10,447 bases of DNA from Halalkalibacterium halodurans (GTDB lineage Bacteria; Bacillota; Bacilli; Bacillales; Bacillaceae_D). A program made the translations under genes and the position numbers. Under the pieces are notes generated by a model, which was not told the origin of the DNA, did no database searches, and was given only the letters and a program-made list of their open reading frames with translations. This document shows positions 1 to 10,447 of the stretch, in pieces (positions within the stretch are counted from its first letter, which is position 1; every line of letters starts with the position of its first letter). Location: contig NZ_SNUY01000078.1 in NCBI RefSeq assembly GCF_004376175.1, forward strand, positions 1-10,447, written 5' to 3'.

Positions 1-104
1 CGCCCTTGATTGACCTCTGAATAAACCATTGGTGTGTTTGTCAAGAGCGATAGCGTGGCATTTCCACCTAATAAATGGTAGGTAGTATGAACCGTGCTAG
101 TTTT

Positions 105-428
105 TCATAGAACTTTTGACACTACCTCATCATTCATGATATTTTCGACCATATGAACATCTATCGCAGAATATTTAATACGGTTTTTTTGAATGGCATA
201 AAACAAAGTGTGATACATCTTACGTTTTGGATTACTTCGAGATGGCATTAATAAGAAAATGCTAACTCCCATACCAAAAACATAATAGGGAATGGTTAAC
301 GAAGAGTGAACCATTCCCTTAGATAGATAAAGAAAAAAAGCAGTTAGTAATAGAATGACAATCTCTTTAAGATGAAATGACTTGGTTATCTTTATCTCAC
401 TTTTAAAGTGTTTCGGAATTTCATACAA
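105..428 (-). CDS. Small two-TM T4SS membrane protein, PrgI/ConD/TcpE-type (VirB3-like), 107 aa
   Basis: Track ORF. The start is TTG (426-428), with a GGGAGGAAGG SD about 8 nt upstream. It lies 1 nt after the TAG stop (430-432) of the upstream gene, so the two are translationally coupled. An N-terminal IPKHFKSEIKITKSFHLKEIV segment is followed by two adjacent hydrophobic helices and a basic tail (RSNPKRKMYHTLFYAIQKNRIKY), which is the PrgI-family/VirB3-like layout. It sits directly after a VirB6-like gene. The family call is from recalled pattern only. Confidence 0.75.
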   Translation of the reverse strand: MYEIPKHFKSEIKITKSFHLKEIVILLLTAFFLYLSKGMVHSSLTIPYYVFGMGVSIFLLMPSRSNPKRKMYHTLFYAIQKNRIKYSAIDVHMVENIMNDEVVSKVL

Positions 429-429
429 G

Positions 430-2640
430 CTACCTTCCTCCCTTTCTCCAATCTCTTATTGTTCTTCCGATTCGATACCCTGTATTGTAACCTTTTACAT
501 GCTCTTCCTTGGCTTTCATAACTACTCTATTTTGCCCCCAAATAGTATTTGGGTGTTGGGCTGTTTTAAACCCTGTTTCCTTTGTAGTATCGTATGTGGT
601 TTCTTGATATTTTTCATTAGGTGCAGTACTTTCTCCACTCGGAACTGGCGCTGTACCTTGTACGCTTTCACTTGAAATTGGTGCAGTACTTTCTCCACTC
701 GGAACTGGCGCTGTATCTTGTACGCTTTCACTTGAAATTGGTGCAGTACTTTCTCCACTCGGAACTGGCGCTGTACCTTGTACGCTTTCACTTGAAATTG
801 GTGCAGTACTTTCTCCACTCGGAACTGGCGCTGTATCTTGTACGCTTTCACTTGAAATTGGTGCAGTACTTTCTCCACTCGGAACTGGCGCTGTACCTTG
901 TACGCTTTCACTTGAAATTGGTGCAGTACTTTCTCCACTCGGAACTGGCGCTGTACCTTGTACGCTTTCACTTGAAATTGGTGCAGTACTTTCTCCACTC
1001 GGAACTGGCGCTGTATCTTGTACGCTTTCACTTGAAATTGGTGCAGTACTTTCTCCACTCGGAACTGGCGCTGTATCTTGTACACTTTCGCTTGAAATTG
1101 GTGCAGTACTTTCTCCACTCGGAACTGGCGCTGTACCCTGACCAGCCTGTGCATTCAGATTCTGACCTTTCATGCCTTGATCAGCTTGTGCATTTGGATT
1201 CTGACCTTTCATGCCTTGATCAGCCTGTGCATTTGGATTCTGACCTTTCATGCCTTGACCAGCCTGTGCATTTGGATTCTGACCTTTCATGCCTTGACCA
1301 GCCTGTGCATTTGGATTCTGACCTTTCATGCCTTGACCAGCCTGTGCATTTGGATTCTGACCACTTGGGATTTTGTTATTCGCTTGATTACGTCTCGATT
1401 GAGATAAAGCGCCATTGTCTTTTTTTGCCCCATTAGTAGCTTGTATACCTGCCTTTAATCCCCCTGCTAAACCTACACCTTGATTGAATTTAGAGAAGCT
1501 TTCACTTACGAGTTTGCCCCCTACCTTTGATGTCACGTTTGATACAGCTTTACTAGCCATCACTAATCCTACACCTGTCCGCCAACTATCTTTTAATCCT
1601 GCGTCTACTCCTAGTATTCTTTCGACTAAGTGTGGACCATCAATAAGAGCAAGGCTAGCCGCTAATAATAGTAACGAGCTTCCAAACGACCCCAAAGACG
1701 ATTGACCACTTAGCCAGTTTGAAAAAAGCACATAGAATTTAAGAGACACTGCAAGAAAAAAGATAACCGCAAAATTGGAAATTATATCATTAATAATTTG
1801 TTTGATTCGCTGTCCTCCTGATAAATCTGTGACAGCTATAAATAAGCCAAACAGCTTTTTAAATGCTAACTCAAATATAATTCGTCCAACTTTTAAAACA
1901 GCTATAATTAACGTAATTCCAATCACAGATAAGCTAAAAATCGTATTCCACCAAGCTACATGCCAACGGTAGTAAAGTTCTTTACCAATACCAAACCATC
2001 CGTTGCCAAGTGGCTCTTCTCTAAAATTACCATTTGTGTCCATAACCAATTTGCTTTTTAAGTAATCATTATTTATATCATCACTGTCGGGATCTATCAA
2101 TTCATTAATATCTATATACGTTATTCGACTAACCGGAAGATCATTTACAAGTCCTTTTTCCGGTATTCTCACATTAAAATCCTTTTTTGCATAAAGGTAT
2201 ACATCAGCAATATTACCTTTAATAAGTTGTTCAGCATTTGTGCCAGCGCTAGTATCACCTATGGCTTTGACCCCTGCTGTTGTTATATTGTCTAAATTAG
2301 ACAATAGCAGGGGCAATGCAATAATAAACAAGAAAGCCAATAAAACATTAGTCACAACTCTTTCCCGATCTTGCATTTTCCCTGCCATAAACTTATATCC
2401 TATCCACACCAGTGATATTGCAACAAGTACCCATAATACCGGCGACCATTGTTTTATAAAGTTATTTACAGGTGCTGAGTTGAAAAATCCATTCATAGTC
2501 AATACTGTATCCGTCATACCTTCTACTTGGTTGACTAGCCACATAAGCCCTAAAATGAGCCACCAGCCTAACTCTCGAAGGGATGAACTAAGTATATTAG
2601 CAATGTTCAAAATCGAATCATATTGTTCTAAAACGTCCAA
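430..2640 (-). CDS. VirB6-like polytopic T4SS channel protein (ConG/TcpH/PrgH class) with a long repetitive C-terminal tail, 736 aa
   Basis: Track ORF. TTG start at 2638-2640, with a GGGGGAGA SD about 5 nt upstream, 11 nt after the stop of the upstream gene. Residues 1-340 contain about 7 hydrophobic helices, with a ~115-aa hydrophilic loop after the third helix (VirB6-type topology). The segment LIDGPHLVERILGVDAGLKDSWR after the last helix resembles Gram-positive VirB6 analogues. The C-terminal ~330 aa carry GQNPNAQAGQGMK x5.7 and TAPVPSGESTAPISSESVQ[G/D] x8.7 repeats, followed by a basic 60-aa end. Confidence 0.85.
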   Translation of the reverse strand: MDVLEQYDSILNIANILSSSLRELGWWLILGLMWLVNQVEGMTDTVLTMNGFFNSAPVNNFIKQWSPVLWVLVAISLVWIGYKFMAGKMQDRERVVTNVLLAFLFIIALPLLLSNLDNITTAGVKAIGDTSAGTNAEQLIKGNIADVYLYAKKDFNVRIPEKGLVNDLPVSRITYIDINELIDPDSDDINNDYLKSKLVMDTNGNFREEPLGNGWFGIGKELYYRWHVAWWNTIFSLSVIGITLIIAVLKVGRIIFELAFKKLFGLFIAVTDLSGGQRIKQIINDIISNFAVIFFLAVSLKFYVLFSNWLSGQSSLGSFGSSLLLLAASLALIDGPHLVERILGVDAGLKDSWRTGVGLVMASKAVSNVTSKVGGKLVSESFSKFNQGVGLAGGLKAGIQATNGAKKDNGALSQSRRNQANNKIPSGQNPNAQAGQGMKGQNPNAQAGQGMKGQNPNAQAGQGMKGQNPNAQADQGMKGQNPNAQADQGMKGQNLNAQAGQGTAPVPSGESTAPISSESVQDTAPVPSGESTAPISSESVQDTAPVPSGESTAPISSESVQGTAPVPSGESTAPISSESVQGTAPVPSGESTAPISSESVQDTAPVPSGESTAPISSESVQGTAPVPSGESTAPISSESVQDTAPVPSGESTAPISSESVQGTAPVPSGESTAPNEKYQETTYDTTKETGFKTAQHPNTIWGQNRVVMKAKEEHVKGYNTGYRIGRTIRDWRKGGR
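621..1140. repeat. 60-bp perfect-phase tandem repeat, about 8.7 copies, inside the VirB6-like CDS
   Basis: The unit gtgcagtactttctccactcggaactggcgctgta[c/t]cttgtacgctttcacttgaaattg starts at 621, 681, 741, 801, 861, 921, 981, 1041 and 1101 (the last is partial). One site toggles c/t (656+60n: c,t,c,t,c,c,t,t,c), giving Gly/Asp on the minus strand. The only other changes are two synonymous Ser-codon swaps at 1084 and 1090 and one synonymous Gln change at 1138. Confidence 0.97.
1141..1362. repeat. 39-bp tandem repeat, about 5.7 copies, inside the VirB6-like CDS
   Basis: The unit a[c/t]cagc[c/t]tgtgcatt[t/c][g/a]gattctgacctttcatgccttg starts at 1141, 1180, 1219, 1258, 1297 and 1336 (the last is partial, ending at 1362). 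It encodes GQNPNAQA[G/D]QGMK on the minus strand. The length is a multiple of 3, so copy-number change keeps the reading frame. Confidence 0.97.
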
Positions 2641-2651
2641 AAAATCTCCCC

Positions 2652-3389
2652 CTATAAGGTCACTGAAATATCATGCTTTGCTTTTTGCAAATACAAGAAA
2701 TTAAATAACAAAAATAAGTAAAAGACTGTAAAAATAACTAAAGTAATAGGGGAATTAAGAAAGTCAGCATATAGCTTACTAGCAAAGAGCGATAAAAGAA
2801 TAGGAACCGCAAATACAATACCTGTCATAAAATAAACTCTGTTCGCACTATATTTTTTCTCTCTCTGCAATTCATCCCTTTTAGTTGTCTCGAAGTTAAT
2901 TAATTTGCTAGTAGGACTGAAAAGATCTGTTACAGATCCCCCCATTTGATACTTAATCTCTAATATTTGATGGAAGGCATTTAGCGATACAAAATTATAT
3001 TTTTCAAAATGAGCTACATCGAGTACACCTTCTTGTTTGAGCGTTTTTATAGTCTTGTCTATATCCTTTTTCAATAAATCACTAGCCGATTCTTTAGCTC
3101 CTTCTAAGGCAAAAAGAACGTTTTTGCCTGTCTTTAAATAAAAAACAACATTTGAAACATACTTACTTAACTCACTAAAAATCCTCTGTTCTTTCTTTAA
3201 CTGCCTCCCCAACAATGAAATGCTATAGAAGCAAAGCAAAGACCCAACAAGCCCTAACAAAACGCTTAATACAACATGTTTGCTGATCATGTAGATGTAA
3301 AGAAAGTTGATACTAAAATAAAGGAGTAAATGGAGCAATACCACCCAACCAGAAAACAATTCTTTTGTTAAACCCCATACATCTTTCAT
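2652..3389 (-). CDS. Polytopic membrane protein with T2SSF (GspF/TadB/TadC)-like organisation, 245 aa
   Basis: Track ORF. ATG at 3387-3389, with an AGGAGG SD 8 nt upstream. Two N-terminal TM helices, a ~115-aa helical cytoplasmic segment, then two C-terminal TM helices. The central region follows the platform-protein pattern: SELSKYVSNVVFYLKTGKNVLFALEGA ... NAFHQILEIKYQMGGSVTDLFSPTSKLINFETTKRDELQREKKYSANRVYFMTGIVFAVPIL. The CDS is confident; the family assignment is moderate to low. Confidence 0.8.
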   Translation of the reverse strand: MKDVWGLTKELFSGWVVLLHLLLYFSINFLYIYMISKHVVLSVLLGLVGSLLCFYSISLLGRQLKKEQRIFSELSKYVSNVVFYLKTGKNVLFALEGAKESASDLLKKDIDKTIKTLKQEGVLDVAHFEKYNFVSLNAFHQILEIKYQMGGSVTDLFSPTSKLINFETTKRDELQREKKYSANRVYFMTGIVFAVPILLSLFASKLYADFLNSPITLVIFTVFYLFLLFNFLYLQKAKHDISVTL

Positions 3390-3415
3390 TTTTTTAACCT
3401 CCTGTTTTGATTAAT

Positions 3416-3450
3416 AAAAAAAGGCTTACAAGTCCAATCACTTGTAAGCC
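3416..3450 (-). terminator. Rho-independent terminator downstream of the primase gene
   Basis: On the minus strand: GGCTTACAAGT-gattgg-ACTTGTAAGCC (perfect 11-bp stem at 3423-3433/3440-3450, 6-nt loop) followed directly by TTTTTTT (3416-3422). The plus-strand reading has no T-tract, so it is unidirectional. Confidence 0.85.
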
Positions 3451-3470
3451 CCGAAAAAATCCCTAATAAC

Positions 3471-3499
3471 AATATAGCACGCTTTGAGTACCTTGTTAG
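3471..3499 (-). promoter_or_regulatory. Candidate sigma-A type promoter (extended -10) in the primase/245-aa intergenic region
   Basis: On the minus strand: CTAACA (3494-3499, 4/6 to TTGACA), a 17-nt spacer ending in TGC, then TATATT (3471-3476, 5/6 to TATAAT). That gives a TGnTATATT extended -10. It is only a sequence match, and the spacer also contains a 5-bp inverted repeat AGTAC...GTACT. Confidence 0.3.
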
Positions 3500-3526
3500 T
3501 ACTTAAATAGTTCATAAAAAGTTCGT

Positions 3527-5134
3527 TTAACCAACTTCCTTTTGAGATTCTTTTTCTTTGTTTTTAGTTTTTAATGGCTTTGTTAAATCTAAAATCTTGT
3601 TAGAAAAATCCTTAGAAGTCTTAACAAAGCTATTTATTTTATCACCCTTAAAATAGTACGGTGTTGATACATAATCTTTTCCTTTACTCTTACCTGTTAC
3701 AATTCCATTTACAATTAAATTACGATAACCAATATTAACAGATATATTACCGTTAGAGAAAGTATGTGAATGAATGATTTTAGGATCAAACTTCCCCCCC
3801 CCTGAACTAATATTAATCCCTACATTCTTAACTGTATTTTTTTCCTTAACCTGATGTTTAAGCTCATAGTAACTTTTAATCAACGCCCCTTCTATCATTC
3901 GTTTATCAAGGCTTTCTTCAAATCTATACACATCCCTCCATACACTATCAGTCCCCTTTTTTTGTGGATAATTAATCATAGGTGAACCTTTATATTCCTC
4001 TATTACAATATTATTGAGAGTTATCTCACCGTACTTCACACATGCAAGGGAAATTCCTTTATCTTGCAAAAAGGTCATATTAACAATCTTAACTTTATAA
4101 TCATTTGATTGCTCTGTTTTGTCATTCATTTTCTCACCCTCCTCTTTTTTCAAATCTATGTCTAAGGTTCTTAAAGTTAGCTCTATTTGTCGCTCAAAAA
4201 GTAAGCGGTTGCTTTGGAGTAAGTCATTAGGATCTTTTAGATCCATATCTGGATAAATAAATCCTTTATGAAACAACTTCTCTTCATCCAAAACGTGTGC
4301 TATTTTTTTATCTGCTTCTTTTCCTGCTCTATCATTGTCAAAAGCTCTAATAATCTTTTTCCCCTTAAACTTATCAGGGTTTTCTTTTATAAATGTTTCA
4401 AGCTGTTTTATTTTATTTGAACCTGTAGTCATTAATAAACCCATTTTCGGATCTATTTCTCGGAATGATAGTCCGTCTATAATACTTTCACTAATAACAA
4501 CAGTTTCAGCATTATCCGGTATATCTTCGACAAAATATCTTGCTTTCTCTGTTGGATTTAAAAATAACTGGATTTCTTTCTTCTTTAGACTAGGATCAGA
4601 CGACCTTAATAACAACGAGTCAATTGATCCTTCATGATTGTAAATAGGAAAAACAATATTCCTCTTTGTCATAAAGTCCATTTTCGCATAGTCTTTTTTG
4701 ATTAGGTCAGGGATTTTCGAGAACATAAGTGATACAATCTTAGGATCTTTTAGATCCAAAATGAAAGGTTTCGTAACTTCTCGATTTATCCCCCGATAAT
4801 TTTCTAATTCTTGATTTACAACATGTTTACTCATGAATTTAAAAAAATTAGTACACCAGTCGATTTGCTCTTTTTGTTTTAAAGAGATACTTTTAGGTTT
4901 TTCGTTTTTCTTTAAGTTCAGATTACCTTTTAGTTTTTCATTTAGTTTAATATGCCAACGTTCACCGCAATTATTTTGCCTATTGCACTGTAACACATTA
5001 AGATTATCTTTATACATAAATGCTTCTGGCTGATTACAAGATGGACAAGTACATAAAAAATAACGCCCCTGTGGTTGAGCGTTTAAAGATTCCAACATAT
5101 CATCAATATTCCTAAACTCTAATTGATTCACCAT
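3527..5134 (-). CDS. Plasmid/ICE-type DNA primase: N-terminal Cys-rich zinc ribbon + Toprim domain + C-terminal tandem SpoVG-like domains, 535 aa
   Basis: Track ORF. ATG at 5132-5134, with a GAGGT SD 7 nt upstream. Cys cluster C28-x-C30-x2-C33 ... C50-x5-C56. Toprim signature: acidic Glu in VVISESIIDGLSF (E216) and DxD in IIRAFDNDRAGKEAD (D266/D268). Residues ~346-425 and ~436-517 each resemble SpoVG (see findings). Confidence 0.85.
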   Translation of the reverse strand: MVNQLEFRNIDDMLESLNAQPQGRYFLCTCPSCNQPEAFMYKDNLNVLQCNRQNNCGERWHIKLNEKLKGNLNLKKNEKPKSISLKQKEQIDWCTNFFKFMSKHVVNQELENYRGINREVTKPFILDLKDPKIVSLMFSKIPDLIKKDYAKMDFMTKRNIVFPIYNHEGSIDSLLLRSSDPSLKKKEIQLFLNPTEKARYFVEDIPDNAETVVISESIIDGLSFREIDPKMGLLMTTGSNKIKQLETFIKENPDKFKGKKIIRAFDNDRAGKEADKKIAHVLDEEKLFHKGFIYPDMDLKDPNDLLQSNRLLFERQIELTLRTLDIDLKKEEGEKMNDKTEQSNDYKVKIVNMTFLQDKGISLACVKYGEITLNNIVIEEYKGSPMINYPQKKGTDSVWRDVYRFEESLDKRMIEGALIKSYYELKHQVKEKNTVKNVGINISSGGGKFDPKIIHSHTFSNGNISVNIGYRNLIVNGIVTGKSKGKDYVSTPYYFKGDKINSFVKTSKDFSNKILDLTKPLKTKNKEKESQKEVG

Positions 5135-5148
5135 ATTGTTTACCTCAA

Positions 5149-5682
5149 CTATACAGACTCACTTAAATAACTGTGATCATTTGTAACCTCTCTGTGAGTA
5201 GATAAAACAATTGCTGGATAACTTAATTTTTCAATCTCTTTATCATCAAAAGTAAGTCCTTGAGAGCTTACCAATATCTTCTGTTTTTCTTTGATCCTAT
5301 AATAATGATCCGTCTTATTAATTTGTTGCTCAATTGCCTTTTCTAAATTTCTAGCTATGAGATAAATGATAGCTCCGTCTCCAAAGATACTCTTATTATC
5401 AAAATATTTTTGTAACTCCAGAGATCCCACTACAATGAAGTCATTATTTAAACATTCAGATAGAGCAACAACTTCCTCCATTTCTTCTTCTAAACCTTTT
5501 AATAAAGCAAAATCATTAAATTTATTAGAGTAATATATACAAGGAGTACATTGAGGACTACTTGTAAACAGAAGAATGATCTCCTGCCAAAACTGTTCCG
5601 CCATAGCATAGCATTTTTCTGCAATCCTATTTACAATTTTTTCATTTAAATATTGATTCTCATGTAATAACAAATTACTCAT
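5149..5682 (-). CDS. Hypothetical acidic cytoplasmic protein, 177 aa
   Basis: Track ORF. ATG at 5680-5682, with an AGGAGAG SD 6 nt upstream. It is 11 nt after the upstream stop and 14 nt before the primase start. No TM segment, no signal peptide and no motif I recognise. Confidence 0.8.
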   Translation of the reverse strand: MSNLLLHENQYLNEKIVNRIAEKCYAMAEQFWQEIILLFTSSPQCTPCIYYSNKFNDFALLKGLEEEMEEVVALSECLNNDFIVVGSLELQKYFDNKSIFGDGAIIYLIARNLEKAIEQQINKTDHYYRIKEKQKILVSSQGLTFDDKEIEKLSYPAIVLSTHREVTNDHSYLSESV

Positions 5683-5693
5683 AATTAACTCTC

Positions 5694-6950
5694 CTAACTT
5701 TTATTTTTTTCAAAAACCACTTTAGTAACATGACTGATATACTCAGTAACCGCCCAATACTTAAAATCCATGCCTTTATTAATGCTCGACTCATATAACA
5801 CTTTTTTTACCTCTTCTTGATCCAACGTTGCAACATACTCCATAATCTCACGTTCAAAACGCCCAAAGAATCCACATTCTATTAATTCCTCAATTTTTAA
5901 AGTTTCTTTTTTGTTCTGCAACCTTCTAATTAGTTTGCCATCTTGACAGATGTTTTTTACTAAGATTTCTGCTACATTATCGAATCCATGTTTTGAAAAT
6001 AAATTTAAAAGATCGTCTTCTGTTTGTCCGTTTGATTGACTTTCATTTTCCTCATTAATGTTAAAGACAATAATCGCTTCTTCTGACTTCTGATCCTTTT
6101 GTTCATTCTGTAAGTATCCAGATAATACTGGCAGTATAATATTATTTTTTATATCGTCCTCAGAGGAAATAACTATCCCCTTTTTAATAATTGAATACCA
6201 CCTGTTCTTCAATAAAGTTTCTATTTCTTTATTCTTTTTTAGCGCCAATACGTAGTCCTCTAAAGCTAGTTGCTCGAATAAATATCTTTGAACCTCTTCA
6301 TAAACTTCCGAATCTCTTAGGCATTTATCAAGTCTAGATAAAGGTAAACTGTAGCGACTTGCTACAGCATAATTCTGAAACATTGAAAAGTTTTCAACGT
6401 CATTTAGACTTTCCTGTGTTAATTCCTGTGTTAAGACTAGATCATCAAAAGAATACTTAATTGCTTTTGCAATATCATTAACTTCACTATAAAAACTACC
6501 TACTATTCGATCTCTAAAAAGATCATAGAGTTGCTTCAATTTTTCTAAACTAAAAGAAAAATCTTGATTAGAAAATTGTTCTTCGACTTCAATAGCAAAC
6601 AATTTAAAATTTTGATCCAAAAACAATTTCTTTTCTTTTGATAGAAAATCAGTAAAATCATTGATCACTTTATTTTTCGTAGCTTCATTCCAATTTGACG
6701 CATTTTTTATTATCAGATAAATCGATTCTTCCAAACTTCTATTATCATTAAAATCAATAAAAGCCTTTAACACTCTTTTATTTTTAATAAACAAAGTAAA
6801 GGACAGTTCAACATTATCCCTTCCATTTTTTCTAAATTCACCTTTAAGTTTTTTTAAGATTCCTTCTAATTCGCTAATAAAATATCGTCGCTTTGGATCT
6901 AAATCTCTAATGCTGTTATTAGCTTCAACAACTACATGTACTTCCCTCAT
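5694..6950 (-). CDS. Hypothetical acidic helical cytoplasmic protein, 418 aa from the preferred start
   Basis: The track ORF extends to a TTG at 6980, but that codon lies inside the upstream terminator T-tract. The ATG at 6948-6950 has an AAAGGGG SD 7 nt upstream and is preferred. There is no Walker A, metal-binding or nuclease motif that I can recognise, and no TM segments. Confidence 0.8.
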   Translation of the reverse strand: MREVHVVVEANNSIRDLDPKRRYFISELEGILKKLKGEFRKNGRDNVELSFTLFIKNKRVLKAFIDFNDNRSLEESIYLIIKNASNWNEATKNKVINDFTDFLSKEKKLFLDQNFKLFAIEVEEQFSNQDFSFSLEKLKQLYDLFRDRIVGSFYSEVNDIAKAIKYSFDDLVLTQELTQESLNDVENFSMFQNYAVASRYSLPLSRLDKCLRDSEVYEEVQRYLFEQLALEDYVLALKKNKEIETLLKNRWYSIIKKGIVISSEDDIKNNIILPVLSGYLQNEQKDQKSEEAIIVFNINEENESQSNGQTEDDLLNLFSKHGFDNVAEILVKNICQDGKLIRRLQNKKETLKIEELIECGFFGRFEREIMEYVATLDQEEVKKVLYESSINKGMDFKYWAVTEYISHVTKVVFEKNKS

Positions 6951-6978
6951 GTCAAAACCCCTTTTTAACAGTAAATAC

Positions 6979-7010
6979 AAAAAAAGATGGTGAGTTAATA
7001 ACTCACCATC
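6979..7010 (-). terminator. Rho-independent terminator downstream of the 75-aa gene
   Basis: On the minus strand: GATGGTGAGTT-att-AACTCACCATC (11-bp perfect inverted repeat at 6986-6996/7000-7010) followed by TTTTTTT (6979-6985). It starts 8 nt after the TAG stop at 7019-7021. Confidence 0.85.
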
Positions 7011-7018
7011 CTACATTT

Positions 7019-7246
7019 CTAGAAGGCAACTACCCCTCTTAAACTGTCTCGTAACGCTCCTGCTCCCAGCACAATCACCAGTCCAACAAGAAGCCATGTA
7101 ATATTTCGCTTGCCCTTTTCCCTACCTTCTTGTCCTCCTGCAAAGAAGTTATACCCCGCCATACATAACATTACTGCACAAAAAGCCCACGCAGGCATTT
7201 GAATAAGCCCTAAGAAGTTTATTAAAGTAGAAATTACACCCTGCAT
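7019..7246 (-). CDS. VirB2/TrbC-like small two-TM protein (pilin-type T4SS subunit), 75 aa
   Basis: Track ORF. ATG at 7244-7246, with a GGAGGA SD 8 nt upstream. Two hydrophobic helices are separated by a short charged loop (GGQEGREKGKRN). The pattern LINFLGL...AFCAVMLCMAGYNFFAGG...LLVGLVIVLGAGALRDSLRG parallels mature Agrobacterium VirB2 (FILGPFGQSLAVLGIVAIGISWMFGR...GGIVIMFGASFLGKTLTG). This is recalled similarity, not a search result. Confidence 0.7.
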   Translation of the reverse strand: MQGVISTLINFLGLIQMPAWAFCAVMLCMAGYNFFAGGQEGREKGKRNITWLLVGLVIVLGAGALRDSLRGVVAF

Positions 7247-7273
7247 TTTTATAATCCTCCAATCTCATTTAAA

Positions 7274-7462
7274 TTAATCTGATACTGCTTCTAAAACAAA
7301 AGATAGATTTTCTGTGATTACTTTTTCATGTTGTGAATGTAGCCATTCATTGTAATCCACTCCTTTCAGAGCAAGAATTTTTTCAGCTTGCTCCTTCTTT
7401 GTTTTAAAATTACTTGGCTTCTTTCTTGGTCTATTTTGCTGTTCATTTTTCAGTTGTTCCAT
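7274..7462 (-). CDS. Small basic soluble protein of unknown function, 62 aa from the preferred start
   Basis: The track ORF (83 aa) starts at 7525, inside the upstream gene. The ATG at 7460-7462 has an AAAGGAG SD 8 nt upstream, and this SD overlaps the TAA stop (7476-7478) of the upstream gene. Sequence: MEQLKNEQQNRPRKKPSNFKTKKEQAEKILALKGVDYNEWLHSQHEKVITENLSFVLEAVSD. Confidence 0.65.
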   Translation of the reverse strand: MEQLKNEQQNRPRKKPSNFKTKKEQAEKILALKGVDYNEWLHSQHEKVITENLSFVLEAVSD

Positions 7463-7475
7463 ATTCTCATCTCCT

Positions 7476-10010
7476 TTATTCCAACGAAATAATATTAGAC
7501 AACCTTTCGTATAGGTCACCATCACTTGTTCTAAAAGAATGTAATAGCTGAGGTTGATCCTGCACCAATTCGAGTATTAGATTCTTTTGTGAATCCTTAA
7601 TCTCGACAGCATGTGTATAACTAACATTTAACGTAGATTCAGGTTGTTCATTGACGTATACGTCATCATAAACAGATCCTAATAGATACTTCTGAAAAGC
7701 AAATTCTTTACCAAAGTCAAGCGTTAGATCATTAAGTGTGAGCTTACCCAAAACATAATGATTCTTATACTGTCTCTCTCTATTCAGAAATGACTTTGGA
7801 TCAACAGGTAAATAGTACCTTTGACCATCAAAAGTTGTTATGTTTTCATTACTAAATTTTGACTTAGTAATTGATTCATACTCTAACTTTGCCTGTTTCT
7901 TTATATCTTCCTTACTTGACTTTCTAGGGACTGAGAACTGAAACCCTGTTTTATCTAAAATAAAAAAATCATCTTTAGCACCAAAATACGCCTTATACTG
8001 GTTTGCTTCACCCTCTTGTATTTCTATTAACTCAAGGGGAATTGCATACTCTGTATAGGCGTAAGCAGTTTTATTTTGATATTTTTTCTGTATAGATTCA
8101 TCCAAATCTACAGGGTAAAGGAACATAAAATCCTCGTCAATGTTATAAGGGAATGGCTCTCCAAAGTCTGATTTGTACTCTATTGGCTTATCAAATATCG
8201 GAAGCCAACTTTGCGTGAGTAAAGTAATCATTCTTTGATCATTAAGCTTTAGTGACTCATAATAACTTTCTTTTTCCCCTTTCGAACCTACCTCTACCGT
8301 TTGCCCTATTAAGAATCTGTGATCAGTACCAAATTCTAAATTATAGGTTTCATTATATGGATAATCTAAGTTAAACGTTTCTTCCCACTGGAAGCTTTTT
8401 TTATACTCTTTATCCCACACAGGTGTACTATCTTTGTAGATCCACTCAAAACAATGCTGTCCTTGTTGATCAGTACAAGTATAATTACGCCTAAAATGGT
8501 TCGTATACTCATAAGAAAAAGAAAACAGAACATCCCTTTTTTTTACATCCAATGGTTGTAACTTCGTTGAAAATGGTTCATCCTCTACGTTGTTAAATAC
8601 ATTTGCTGAATAGATACGATTTTCTACATTTTGTACATCAAAGTGCAACCCTGCAACCGTAGCAGAATTAACCAATAAGGTTTCACTAGGGTTATTTTCT
8701 TTAATTTTTTGTAAGCGCCATGATACTTCACCTTGAGCTTTCCCTTCTGTTGCACCATCTAATTCTTCTATACTGGAAGGGTTCGGCAAAGATACTTTGT
8801 AGGTAAATGTAAAATTCATATTGTTATTTGGTGTAGTCCCTTCATATTTTTGTCCTTCTGGCGAAGCGACAAAAGGGTTTCCGTTGGAATCCTTAAAAAA
8901 TCCAGCCTTCTCAGGTGCATACGAGTAAGAGTTTCCAACAGTAGATTTTACCTTCGTTTGCATTAATATCTTGCCTGTCGCGTAATCCTTATGAGTAATT
9001 GTTACATCAACTGTACATCTTTGATTGATGTTTACTATTGACCCATCTGGACAAACCTTTTTGGTTACTTGGTACGATAGAGTAGCAATAGTACCACCAA
9101 AAGCCCAATAGCTACTAGCTGCCCATCGAGTTCGTCCTGAATCATGAGGGCTACTGACACCATACCAAACAACAGTACTCTTTTGATCTTGGTTCACACG
9201 TTGATAAAAGCGATTGTAGTCAAAATAGTTGCCACTGTTTGTAGTCCCTCTTGGTTCGATTCGCCTGATAACACCATTTCCAATCATACGTAACTGTTGA
9301 GCGTTAATCCCACTAGAAAGGCTAATTTCACCATTACCCCAAGATAGATTTTCAAACTCAAAAGGTAAACGCAATTCGTCATAAAGAACAGTTGAACCTA
9401 CTCTTTTGACAATACGTAACTGCCAATCAGAGTTATTTTCCCCATCCTTAAAAAGCTCATCTAATGGAACATGCGCTCTAAACCCTACATGTTCATAATA
9501 CATGTTGCAAGTTGCATTATTTTGGTTTCTAGCACTATTCGCACAAGGGTTCCAAATATCCCCCGTTTGAGACTGACGGTTGAACTCCATATCTTTTGAA
9601 GCGTTAAAATTAAGTTGTTCCGCTTTATAAAACTTGTCTTCCCCAGTCCTAATATTTTTAAGCCAAATGTATGTGTCTTGGTTATTTTCTGTGTGGTGTC
9701 TATGTCCAATAACTGCTGACCATCCTGTGAAAGTTAAATATTGCCTACTACCTTTTCCAAAGTCCCTACGTTTAATGCTCCAGCCTTCTTTTCCGTCTCT
9801 TTGCATATAAACATCATATACCATCTTTTTTCCACTTTCGAAAGTAGCAGATCGATCTCCTTTTGTCCTCTTGTTTACATCGCTCATTTTAACGTCGTAA
9901 GGACTGTAACTATTCGCTAATCCATTTTCAGGGAAAGCCAACCAAAGAGCAAACCAAAGAGCAAATAATGAAAACACAACAGTTATATAGGAAATTGCTT
10001 TCTTCATCAT
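7476..10010 (-). CDS. Large secreted surface/adhesin-like protein with a MucBP-like beta domain, 844 aa from the preferred start
   Basis: The track ORF begins at a TTG at 10049, inside the upstream terminator. The ATG-ATG at 10005-10010 follows an AAAGGGGGTGAGGGA SD. It has a classical Sec signal peptide (MMKK + AISYITVVFSLFALWFALWLAF + PENGLA/NS). Residues ~346-419 in track numbering (VDVTITHKDYATGKILMQTKVKSTVGNSYSYAPEKAGFFKDSNGNPFVASPEGQKYEGTTPNNNMNFTFTYKV) fit the MucBP pattern. There are three short-range Cys pairs (169/181, 333/345, 525/533). There is no C-terminal LPXTG or TM anchor. Confidence 0.85.
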   Translation of the reverse strand: MMKKAISYITVVFSLFALWFALWLAFPENGLANSYSPYDVKMSDVNKRTKGDRSATFESGKKMVYDVYMQRDGKEGWSIKRRDFGKGSRQYLTFTGWSAVIGHRHHTENNQDTYIWLKNIRTGEDKFYKAEQLNFNASKDMEFNRQSQTGDIWNPCANSARNQNNATCNMYYEHVGFRAHVPLDELFKDGENNSDWQLRIVKRVGSTVLYDELRLPFEFENLSWGNGEISLSSGINAQQLRMIGNGVIRRIEPRGTTNSGNYFDYNRFYQRVNQDQKSTVVWYGVSSPHDSGRTRWAASSYWAFGGTIATLSYQVTKKVCPDGSIVNINQRCTVDVTITHKDYATGKILMQTKVKSTVGNSYSYAPEKAGFFKDSNGNPFVASPEGQKYEGTTPNNNMNFTFTYKVSLPNPSSIEELDGATEGKAQGEVSWRLQKIKENNPSETLLVNSATVAGLHFDVQNVENRIYSANVFNNVEDEPFSTKLQPLDVKKRDVLFSFSYEYTNHFRRNYTCTDQQGQHCFEWIYKDSTPVWDKEYKKSFQWEETFNLDYPYNETYNLEFGTDHRFLIGQTVEVGSKGEKESYYESLKLNDQRMITLLTQSWLPIFDKPIEYKSDFGEPFPYNIDEDFMFLYPVDLDESIQKKYQNKTAYAYTEYAIPLELIEIQEGEANQYKAYFGAKDDFFILDKTGFQFSVPRKSSKEDIKKQAKLEYESITKSKFSNENITTFDGQRYYLPVDPKSFLNRERQYKNHYVLGKLTLNDLTLDFGKEFAFQKYLLGSVYDDVYVNEQPESTLNVSYTHAVEIKDSQKNLILELVQDQPQLLHSFRTSDGDLYERLSNIISLE

Positions 10011-10037
10011 TAGAAGTCCCTCACCCCCTTTTCGAAT

Positions 10038-10070
10038 AAAAAAACACAAAACCTAGTAGCTTCGTGTTTT
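10038..10070 (-). terminator. Intrinsic terminator of small-peptide cassette 1
   Basis: Minus-strand RNA: AAAACACGAAGC-uacuag-GGUUUUGUGUUUU followed by further U (7 U in a row, 10038-10044). The core stem is 8 bp with two G.U pairs, flanked by A/U pairs. It overlaps the TAA stop at 10069-10071. Confidence 0.7.
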
Positions 10071-10224
10071 AGAATACATTGCGAATCGTATCTGTAATAC
10101 CTTTAAAAACAGTATCTACTGTTTGACTAAACCATCCATTATCACCACCAAGTGCTACCCCTAGCACTCCAAAGAGCATTACAGCAAGAACAATTAAAAA
10201 CAAAGATCCATTTTTTTCACCCAT
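10069..10224 (-). CDS. 51-aa single-TM membrane peptide, cassette copy 1 (not in the ORF track)
   Basis: Hand translation of the minus strand gives ATG (10222-10224) ... TAA (10069-10071): MGEKNGSLFLIVLAVMLFGVLGVALGGDNGWFSQTVDTVFKGITDTIRNVF. The SD AAAGGGGGTGA (10/11 match to AAAGGAGGTGA) ends 5 nt before the ATG. An identical peptide is encoded 209 bp upstream, with only a synonymous difference. Confidence 0.8.
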   Translation of the reverse strand: MGEKNGSLFLIVLAVMLFGVLGVALGGDNGWFSQTVDTVFKGITDTIRNVF

Positions 10225-10246
10225 CAGTTTCACCCCCTTTTCGAAT

Positions 10247-10279
10247 AAAAAAACACGAAACCTAATAGCTTCGTGTTTT
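10247..10279 (-). terminator. Intrinsic terminator of small-peptide cassette 2
   Basis: Same hairpin as at 10038-10070, but the stem G.U pair is a G-C pair here (10257 g versus 10048 a on the plus strand) and the loop differs by one base. It is followed by U7. Confidence 0.7.
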
Positions 10280-10433
10280 AGAATACATTGCGAATCGTAT
10301 CTGTGATACCTTTAAAAACAGTATCTACTGTTTGACTAAACCATCCATTATCACCACCAAGTGCTACCCCTAGCACTCCAAAGAGCATTACAGCAAGAAC
10401 AATTAAAAACAAAGATCCATTTTTTTCACCCAT
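10278..10433 (-). CDS. 51-aa single-TM membrane peptide, cassette copy 2 (not in the ORF track)
   Basis: ATG at 10431-10433 and TAA at 10278-10280. The protein is identical to copy 1, with a single synonymous ATT/ATC difference at Ile43. It has the same consensus-like SD. Confidence 0.8.
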   Translation of the reverse strand: MGEKNGSLFLIVLAVMLFGVLGVALGGDNGWFSQTVDTVFKGITDTIRNVF

Positions 10434-10447
10434 CAGCTTCACCCCCT

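Follow-up and report, generated by a model that had tools for sequence, protein, structure and literature searches.

A conjugative-type primase of Halalkalibacterium halodurans with a diverged tandem SpoVG-like tail

Conjugative primases of Gram-positive bacteria have barely been studied, and one question about them is how a helicase-independent primase finds the incoming strand and stays on it. A gene of Halalkalibacterium halodurans raises this question in concrete form. It lies in a 10,447-nucleotide stretch of DNA (contig NZ_SNUY01000078.1, positions 1 to 10,447; hereafter the window), and its product (WP_134230266.1) is publicly labeled "toprim domain-containing protein" and nothing more. 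What, then, is the long region that follows the Toprim domain, and what might it do for a primase? Profile comparisons show this tail to be homologous, domain for domain, to tandem SpoVG proteins. The parts of the gene needed for this argument are as follows.

3527 to 5134, minus strand: primase gene, a 535-residue open reading frame identical to WP_134230266.1
4097 to 4216, minus strand: linker, residues 307-346, ending in the acidic stretch EEGEKMNDKTEQSND
3851 to 4096, minus strand: SpoVG-like domain 1, residues 347-428, a beta-rich core and C-terminal helix, with K392-K393
3788 to 3850, minus strand: basic interdomain linker, residues 429-449 (isoelectric point, pI, 10.0)
3575 to 3787, minus strand: SpoVG-like domain 2, residues 450-520, more diverged, with Tyr and Phe replacing the basic doublet
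3530 to 3574, minus strand: Lys-rich C-terminal tail, residues 521-535, PLKTKNKEKESQKEVG, of low model confidence

Residues ~347-520, after the Toprim domain and linker, form two homologous repeats. The initial annotation had read the span 3584-4099 (residues 346-517) by eye as two SpoVG-like segments behind an acidic linker. All of the strings it quoted were found: the acidic portion of the linker at residues 331-345 (window 4100-4144), segment 1 at residues 347-425 (window 3860-4096), and segment 2 at residues 438-516 (window 3587-3823). Two C-terminal SpoVG-like domains are now backed by profile, profile-profile and structure evidence. The resemblance was borne out at the family level but is not convincing from the window sequence alone, and the profile searches recovered SpoVG through family profiles, not from the window sequence itself.

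Direct tests give the following picture. A canonical SpoVG hidden Markov model (HMM) gives the primase tail about 5 bits, and the window protein fails the gathering score of the Pfam SpoVG family (PF04026), which is 29.6 bits. BLASTP of the tail against Bacillus subtilis SpoVG aligned segment 1 only, with 21% identity over 53 residues and an E-value of 0.007 in this single comparison; segment 2 gave nothing. A domain 1 profile searched against PDB sequences had SpoVG as its top three matches, at E-values of 0.5-0.8, and a domain 2 profile did not match SpoVG there. With phmmer, neither the protein nor the tail matched anything but noise (DNMT3A, PARP1) among PDB sequences. A word-indexed homologue search and a tblastn search of plasmids and phages, both with the tail alone, found nothing; megablast of the primase gene against plasmids found nothing either, and a related-locus search with four sequences gave no confirmed locus among GTDB species genomes. 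Because the direct tests on the window sequence are weak, the SpoVG call is unprovable from this one sequence.

The family carries the case. Eight full-length homologues were aligned (36-48% identity by BLASTP, 38-50% in the alignment). In one of these, P0004 (44% identical, from a syntenic locus), the first repeat exceeds the gathering score of Pfam SpoVG, with 33.3 bits. The first repeats of P0002 and P0003 give sub-threshold Pfam matches to SpoVG, and in P0006 and P0007 the Pfam match lies in the second repeat. In all, four of the eight first repeats and three of the eight second ones match SpoVG, below or near threshold, and no other family recurs. Profiles of the two segments match each other in hhalign (93%, 2.8e-7). 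Compared with a diverse SpoVG alignment, segment 1 reaches 97.9% and segment 2 98.0%, with scores of 68-70, whereas the controls (20 column-shuffled and one reversed per segment) score 7-17.

A search of 1.84 billion representative proteins with the tail profile returned only 45 matches at E<=1e-3, about 25 of which have a pair of canonical SpoVG domains. With an HMM of chromosomal SpoVG these tandem proteins reach 40-136 bits (71-173 bits with Pfam, for those scanned), and they align to the primase tail end to end. The whole tail matches an alignment of these tandem SpoVG proteins at 99.4% (hhalign, P 7.7e-22, 163 columns). The best partner of segment 1 is tandem domain 1 and that of segment 2 is tandem domain 2; because the segments pair domain to domain in this way, the duplication predates the divergence of the primase tail. 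Two further matches to the tail profile, P0035 and P0037 (E-values 2e-17 and 5e-8), were rejected as spurious, being repetitive surface or adhesin proteins with many short repeated stretches. They comprise a protein with PPC repeats and a YadA-type autotransporter, and the tail profile is evidently sensitive to beta-hairpin repeats.

Structure prediction was compared with these results. In an AlphaFold model of residues 336-535 (mean predicted local distance difference test, pLDDT, 85.7; predicted template modeling score 0.80), the tail is predicted with confidence to adopt the SpoVG fold, and the two halves share their order of elements, strands and then a long helix. Foldseek comparison with known structures, as the initial annotation had proposed, places SpoVG chains (2IA9, 2I9Z, 2I9X) at the top of the PDB list for the two-domain model, the matching half not being reported. 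The seven top-ranked SpoVG chains have Foldseek probabilities of 0.93-0.99, and 2i9x_B follows at rank 19 with 0.80. Target TM-scores of the SpoVG chains are 0.60-0.69, with root-mean-square deviations of 2.5-3.4 A over 77-91 columns, and no other PDB match pairs high probability with full target coverage. In a viral library the best match is a phage "putative septation protein" (probability 1.00, E 0.01), and a Clostridium phage SpoVG is also present.

Domain 2 was also modeled in isolation. This model was judged weaker because the small C-terminal strands of the two-domain model became helices. A relationship of domain 2 to RlmN was considered and rejected, as the top match is just a 41-residue piece and comes from this weaker model. 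The assignment of domain 2 rests on the sequence profiles and the two-domain model.

The region before the tail resembles the catalytic part of DnaG.

4964 to 5053, minus strand: N-terminal zinc ribbon, residues 28-57, with C28, C30, C33 ... C50, C56
4520 to 4807, minus strand: N-subdomain of a DnaG-like catalytic core, ~residues 110-205, from a weak TIGR01391 match and invariant columns
4217 to 4498, minus strand: Toprim domain, residues 213-306, PF13155 (Toprim_2) at E 2e-11

Five Cys residues within positions 28-56 are invariant in the alignment of eight homologues, as are the Toprim catalytic residues E216, D266 and D268 and, in the DnaG-like core, the stretch K157-R158-N159 ... I164 (MTKRNIVFPI...LLLRS). 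We take the KRN...PI part of this stretch to resemble the "RNRxMFPI" motif of DnaG. The zinc ribbon call rests mainly on the cysteine pattern, the Pfam match to Zn_ribbon_16 being weak (E 0.15). The NCBIfam matches are also weak, that of TIGR01391 (dnaG) covering residues 149-354 at E 4.8e-5, far under its cutoff, and that of TIGR00646 at E about 1e-5, under cutoff. The linker that follows varies in length from about 25 to 110 residues among homologues. The product of 3527-5134 is supported as a DnaG-type zinc-ribbon/Toprim conjugative primase, predicted to synthesize primers and to enter the recipient. The initial annotation had called it a conjugative primase, in agreement with the Toprim_2 domain, the weak TIGR01391 match, the invariant catalytic residues and the type IV secretion system (T4SS) genes nearby.

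The tandem module occurs well beyond this gene. It recurs in conjugation loci, fused to two unrelated primase lineages or to other N-termini, or encoded separately beside a primase or pilin gene, and the contexts retrieved for several module matches are all conjugation or other mobile-element loci. By its domain composition, the 901-residue P0041 is a second, independent primase lineage with the same tail: it combines ArdC-N, an M78-like peptidase region, DNAG_N, Toprim and the tandem module, and its locus has genes for TrbL-like, VirB4-like and M23 peptidase proteins. Stand-alone modules are found two genes upstream of a 327-residue Zn_ribbon_DnaG/DUF3991/Toprim_2 primase (P0030, 228 residues), in an element that also has a MobL relaxase and topoisomerase III, and just downstream of a T4SS pilin gene, with a 30-residue open reading frame between them (P0028, 223 residues). 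In Listeria booriae, P0026 and an 839-residue protein encoded just upstream both end in the module, on a contig with type IV coupling protein, TrbL-like, topoisomerase, RepA_N and relaxase genes. The two adjacent L. booriae genes (JAASTX010000018.1, L007:5398-7917 and 8001-9614) encode proteins of 839 and 537 residues whose module is ~36% identical to the window tail, and the N-terminal regions of both proteins match no Pfam family.

Among the proteins with canonical tandem SpoVG domains, P0045 joins MuF_C to two SpoVG domains, MuF_C being found in phage head proteins that bring cargo into the host (PMC5512222). P0040, another tandem SpoVG protein, is encoded near LPD11/DUF3846 genes, and sortase neighbors also occur in a tandem SpoVG context. 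Plasmid primases of the B. cereus group and Paenibacillus larvae have a further-diverged two-repeat tail that matches the window tail at 90% probability over 147 columns. A direct match of the B. cereus-group tails to SpoVG was discarded, at 10% probability only, and because of this they are linked to SpoVG only through the H. halodurans-type tail family.

What could such a module bind? SpoVG-family proteins do bind DNA and RNA, as the initial annotation stated (PMC3688583, PMC11086051). In Staphylococcus aureus SpoVG, K50 and R51 (in PSKRT) are each essential for DNA binding, and specificity is set by the helix that follows them (PMC3688583); the Borrelia burgdorferi protein binds RNA, single-stranded DNA (ssDNA) and double-stranded DNA (PMC11086051). 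The window sequence PQKKGTDSVWRD is aligned by HMMER opposite the basic-doublet motif of SpoVG, so that K392-K393 occupy the positions of S. aureus K50-R51. The D, aromatic, R and D positions after the doublet are also retained in domain 1, giving the motif PxKKxxDxxWRD, and each of the two domains has a conserved C-terminal helix. With a pI of 9.6 the whole tail is basic, and its end is Lys-rich. For the pLS20 gene 60 primase, a positively charged C-terminus has been proposed as a translocation signal (PMC8557374), and residues 521-535 are a possible T4SS translocation signal here.

The tail may also be made as a separate protein.

4127 to 4142, minus strand: candidate internal translation start, GGAGG (part of AGGAGG) 8 nucleotides upstream of the Met336 ATG

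The Met336 ATG is in frame and exactly at the boundary of primase and tail. Only three GGAGG-N5-10-ATG sites exist in the window, the other two being the starts of the pilin gene and of a gene for a 245-residue protein. Among the 13 internal in-frame ATGs of the primase gene (M1 excluded), Met336 alone has a strong Shine-Dalgarno sequence, and that of the primase itself is weaker. P0002 and P0006 have an in-frame ATG in the same linker with a GGAG-type site 11 nucleotides upstream. A product from Met336 would have 200 residues, about the size of the stand-alone module homologues; we hypothesize that this start may yield the tail as a protein in its own right.

The reading that we favor, with moderate confidence, is that the diverged tandem SpoVG tail is a single-strand-binding tether or escort that replaces the helicase-binding domain of a conjugative primase. 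The module would bind single-stranded nucleic acid, that is, the transferred DNA strand and/or the junction of RNA primer and template, and would in this way keep the helicase-independent primase on the strand that enters the recipient, much as the non-catalytic parts of SogL/SogS and TraC1 do. Behind a flexible acidic linker, the SpoVG-fold pair and the Lys-rich tail would take the place of the DnaB-binding domain of DnaG. Domain 1 might provide backbone contacts through K392-K393, with domain 2 as its pseudo-dimer partner, and the Lys-rich tail might act as a secretion signal. The internal start at Met336 may in addition make a free 200-residue tail. Replacement of the helicase-binding domain and recruitment to the transferred strand, both suggested by the initial annotation, are consistent with the anatomy of the protein and with the recurrent association of the module with primases.

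A bolder form of this proposal, which we regard as possible but doubtful, is that the tandem module represents a new class of escort that coats or marks the transferred single strand of Gram-positive systems, both fused to the primase and free from Met336, and is exported with the DNA; the SpoVG fold would then ancestrally be a binder of single-stranded nucleic acid.

Several observations speak against the tether reading and the homology beneath it. Pfam scans of the window protein and its isolated segments gave no SpoVG match, even at E<=10, and NCBIfam has no match on the tail. Against an alignment restricted to canonical SpoVG, and so of low diversity, segment 1 reaches 81% (P 1.3e-5) and segment 2 only 6.5%. 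The Foldseek E-values of the SpoVG chains are only 0.2-0.6, and for the isolated segment 2 model (pLDDT 81) SpoVG is not among the 50 Foldseek matches listed. The equivalent of K50 is basic in just one of eight proteins, that of the window, and the equivalent of R51 in seven of eight; domain 2 is without the basic doublet and has an invariant Tyr and a Phe instead, the latter position being Lys in most relatives. SpoVG of B. burgdorferi favors RNA over ssDNA (PMC11086051). Because P0026, P0033 and P0034 join the module to non-primase N-termini, its role is not strictly primase-specific. Regarding Met336, the Shine-Dalgarno sequence in the linker is weak in P0004 and missing from the B. mycoides relative, and the window site could be a by-product of purine-rich Glu/Lys/Gly codons; since such codons readily create sites of this kind by chance, it is suggestive only. 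Finally, nucleic-acid binding and primase activity are deduced from sequence for the whole family.

Some of these points would suit a different function. The module might act mainly in protein-protein contacts and secretion, docking the primase or other cargo on the coupling protein or relaxosome for T4SS export, with nucleic-acid binding lost or secondary. A shared delivery function of this kind would fit the presence of the module on several unrelated N-termini in T4SS loci and alone beside a pilin gene, and the Lys-rich tail behind the module is similar to the signal suggested for the pLS20 primase. The basic doublet, whose conservation in the family is poor and which domain 2 lacks, also leans this way. 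However, no SpoVG-fold protein is known as a secretion adaptor, domain 1 of the window protein retains the PxKKxxDxxWRD motif, and for a signal a short charged tail would be enough. The module is also combined with MuF_C in proteins of phage type, which make no use of a T4SS, and we consider this explanation unlikely.

Somewhat less likely again, in our judgment, is that the module is a sequence-selective RNA- or DNA-binding regulator like chromosomal SpoVG, which might regulate genes for establishment or transfer, or attach to structured single-strand origins or promoters, and would not be a general tether. SpoVG proteins are site-selective binders of DNA and RNA whose C-terminal helix sets specificity (PMC3688583), that helix is present and conserved in both domains of the tail, and a free tail from Met336 could act in trans. 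Yet fusion of the module to two primase lineages and its operonic linkage to a third point to priming and not to gene control, and no candidate target site was identified.

That the SpoVG likeness is convergent or coincidental, and the tail an unrelated pair of beta-rich domains, is very unlikely because of the transitive and controlled profile evidence: the window sequence has no significant Pfam or PDB sequence match, Foldseek E-values exceed 0.1 and the isolated domain 2 model best matched the 41-residue RlmN piece, but a significant chain leads from P0004, above the gathering score, through dozens of tandem SpoVG proteins to the hhalign match of 99.4%, shuffled controls are near zero, and the only high-probability Foldseek matches are SpoVG chains.

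The accessory module and its distribution are new; its parts, and the design of a primase with a DNA-associated region, were known already. No description linking SpoVG to primases, Toprim domains or conjugation machinery was found in the open-access full-text literature searched, nor was any published primase-SpoVG fusion, which agrees with the initial annotation, where this architecture was taken to be undescribed. SpoVG goes unmentioned in a broad survey of polyvalent and transferred proteins, and one gut-microbiome study that found PF04026 enriched in mobile elements read it as sporulation-related. If the tether reading holds, a module that recurs with three primase types would offer a concrete, testable answer to the question of how such enzymes hold the strand. 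The fusion also touches the old question of whether the SpoVG fold is a DNA or RNA binder, as its attachment to an RNA-making enzyme that acts on ssDNA gives a Rosetta-stone hint at binding of single strands or hybrids. For annotation, the module explains ~190 unannotated residues in proteins that are publicly named "toprim domain-containing" or "hypothetical", in Halalkalibacterium, Listeria booriae, Enterococcus raffinosus and probably B. cereus-group plasmids.

The surroundings of the gene place it in a transfer locus. The window genes form one long minus-strand run in which the primase gene sits between a T4SS pilin gene upstream and the pLS20_p028 side downstream. Read along the coding strand, genes for a 245-residue membrane protein, a VirB6-like pLS20_p028 protein (380 bits) and a DUF5592 protein lie after the primase gene, and the pilin gene and conserved genes without an assigned family lie before it. 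Syntenic loci, on a B. mycoides plasmid and metagenomic contigs, contain VirD4-like and VirB11-like genes. The assignment of the primase to a pLS20-like Gram-positive type IV secretion/conjugation locus is well supported by gene content, and because of this T4SS-type context so is its predicted conjugative role.

3421 to 3452, minus strand: strong terminator-like hairpin with a 13-bp stem and then a T-run, just downstream of the primase stop codon

The order of genes after the primase differs among these loci. In two of them (L003:7576-12356 and L001:7600-12324), the genes after the primase are two small ones, one for a VirD4-like coupling protein, one of the 234-residue class and one for a VirB11/CpaF-like ATPase, and the 245-residue membrane protein and p028 genes come only after this VirD4/VirB11 block. 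The block is absent at the syntenic position of the window (3389-3527), where the 245-residue protein gene follows the primase directly after 137 bp, with the hairpin in this gap. The window element may be deleted or defective, or may keep its VirD4/VirB11 genes elsewhere.

Three conserved genes without family assignment (7476-10049, 5694-6980 and 5149-5682, all on the minus strand) encode proteins of 857, 428 and 177 residues, and their order beside pilin and primase is preserved in L003, L001 and L012; the 857-residue protein is 39-44% identical to its counterparts. Just upstream of the gene for this protein, and overlapping the gene start, are 2.0 copies of a 209-bp unit at 98% identity (10021-10447); because they run up to the end of the window, the array may extend further. 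The p028 gene (430-2640, minus strand) contains two near-perfect tandem DNA arrays at 620-1362, one of 60 bp in 8.6 copies at 98% and the other of 39 bp in 5.7 copies at 96%. The first encodes ~9 copies of a 20-residue Ser/Pro/Thr-rich unit, SGESTAPISSESVQDTAPVP, and the second ~6 copies of a 13-residue unit, GQNPNAQAGQGMK. Both lie within a long C-terminal extension, the NCBIfam model spanning residues 2-366 only.

How does the window primase compare with known systems? With SpoVG itself (PF04026; B. subtilis, S. aureus, L. monocytogenes and B. burgdorferi; 2IA9, 2I9X, 2I9Z), its tail has the predicted fold in common and is homologous by profile. Domain 1 keeps a motif of the SpoVG PSKR...DG.FRD type, with K392-K393 at the place of the basic doublet, and both proteins have the C-terminal helix. 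SpoVG, however, is a stand-alone, one-domain chromosomal regulator of ~95-100 residues, whereas here two very diverged tandem copies end a primase. The tandem SpoVG proteins of Firmicutes mobile elements (P0040, P0044, P0045) share the two-domain layout and the mobile-element contexts, but they have no primase fusion and score 40-136 bits with the canonical SpoVG HMM, compared with ~5 bits for the primase tail. As far as we found, these tandem proteins are themselves uncharacterized.

The putative primase of pLS20 gene 60 and its Bacillus and Listeria relatives are homologous to the window protein over the N-terminal 320 residues, with 29-46% identity. The gene 60 family belongs to the same kind of conjugation operon and has a positively charged C-terminal end (PMC8557374), but the similarity of pLS20-type primases stops at ~residue 320 and the C-terminal region is different. 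In L002:2227-3582 (from a B. subtilis plasmid), P0009 and P0010, a different region of about 130-160 residues replaces the SpoVG-like tail, and by eye it resembles a second, degenerate Toprim-like unit.

Among Gram-negative systems, SogL/SogS (IncI1 R64/ColIb-P9) and TraC1 (IncP RP4) likewise combine a Toprim primase with a large non-catalytic, DNA-associated part. TraC1 joins Toprim to an ssDNA-binding ArdC-N domain, and in Sog the large C-terminal part joined to Toprim is believed to coat the strand; the two proteins enter the recipient, and SogS is the C-terminal part of Sog alone, made by internal reinitiation (PMC7213743, PMC6112013). This reinitiation parallels the candidate Met336 start of the window primase. 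The accessory regions are unrelated in sequence (ArdC-N in TraC1), and Sog and TraC1 are delivered to the recipient, whereas entry of the window primase into a recipient is a prediction. With chromosomal DnaG, finally, the window protein shares the order of zinc ribbon, RNA-polymerase core and Toprim and the conserved catalytic residues; DnaG ends in a DnaB-helicase-binding domain, and the window primase has the SpoVG-like pair instead.

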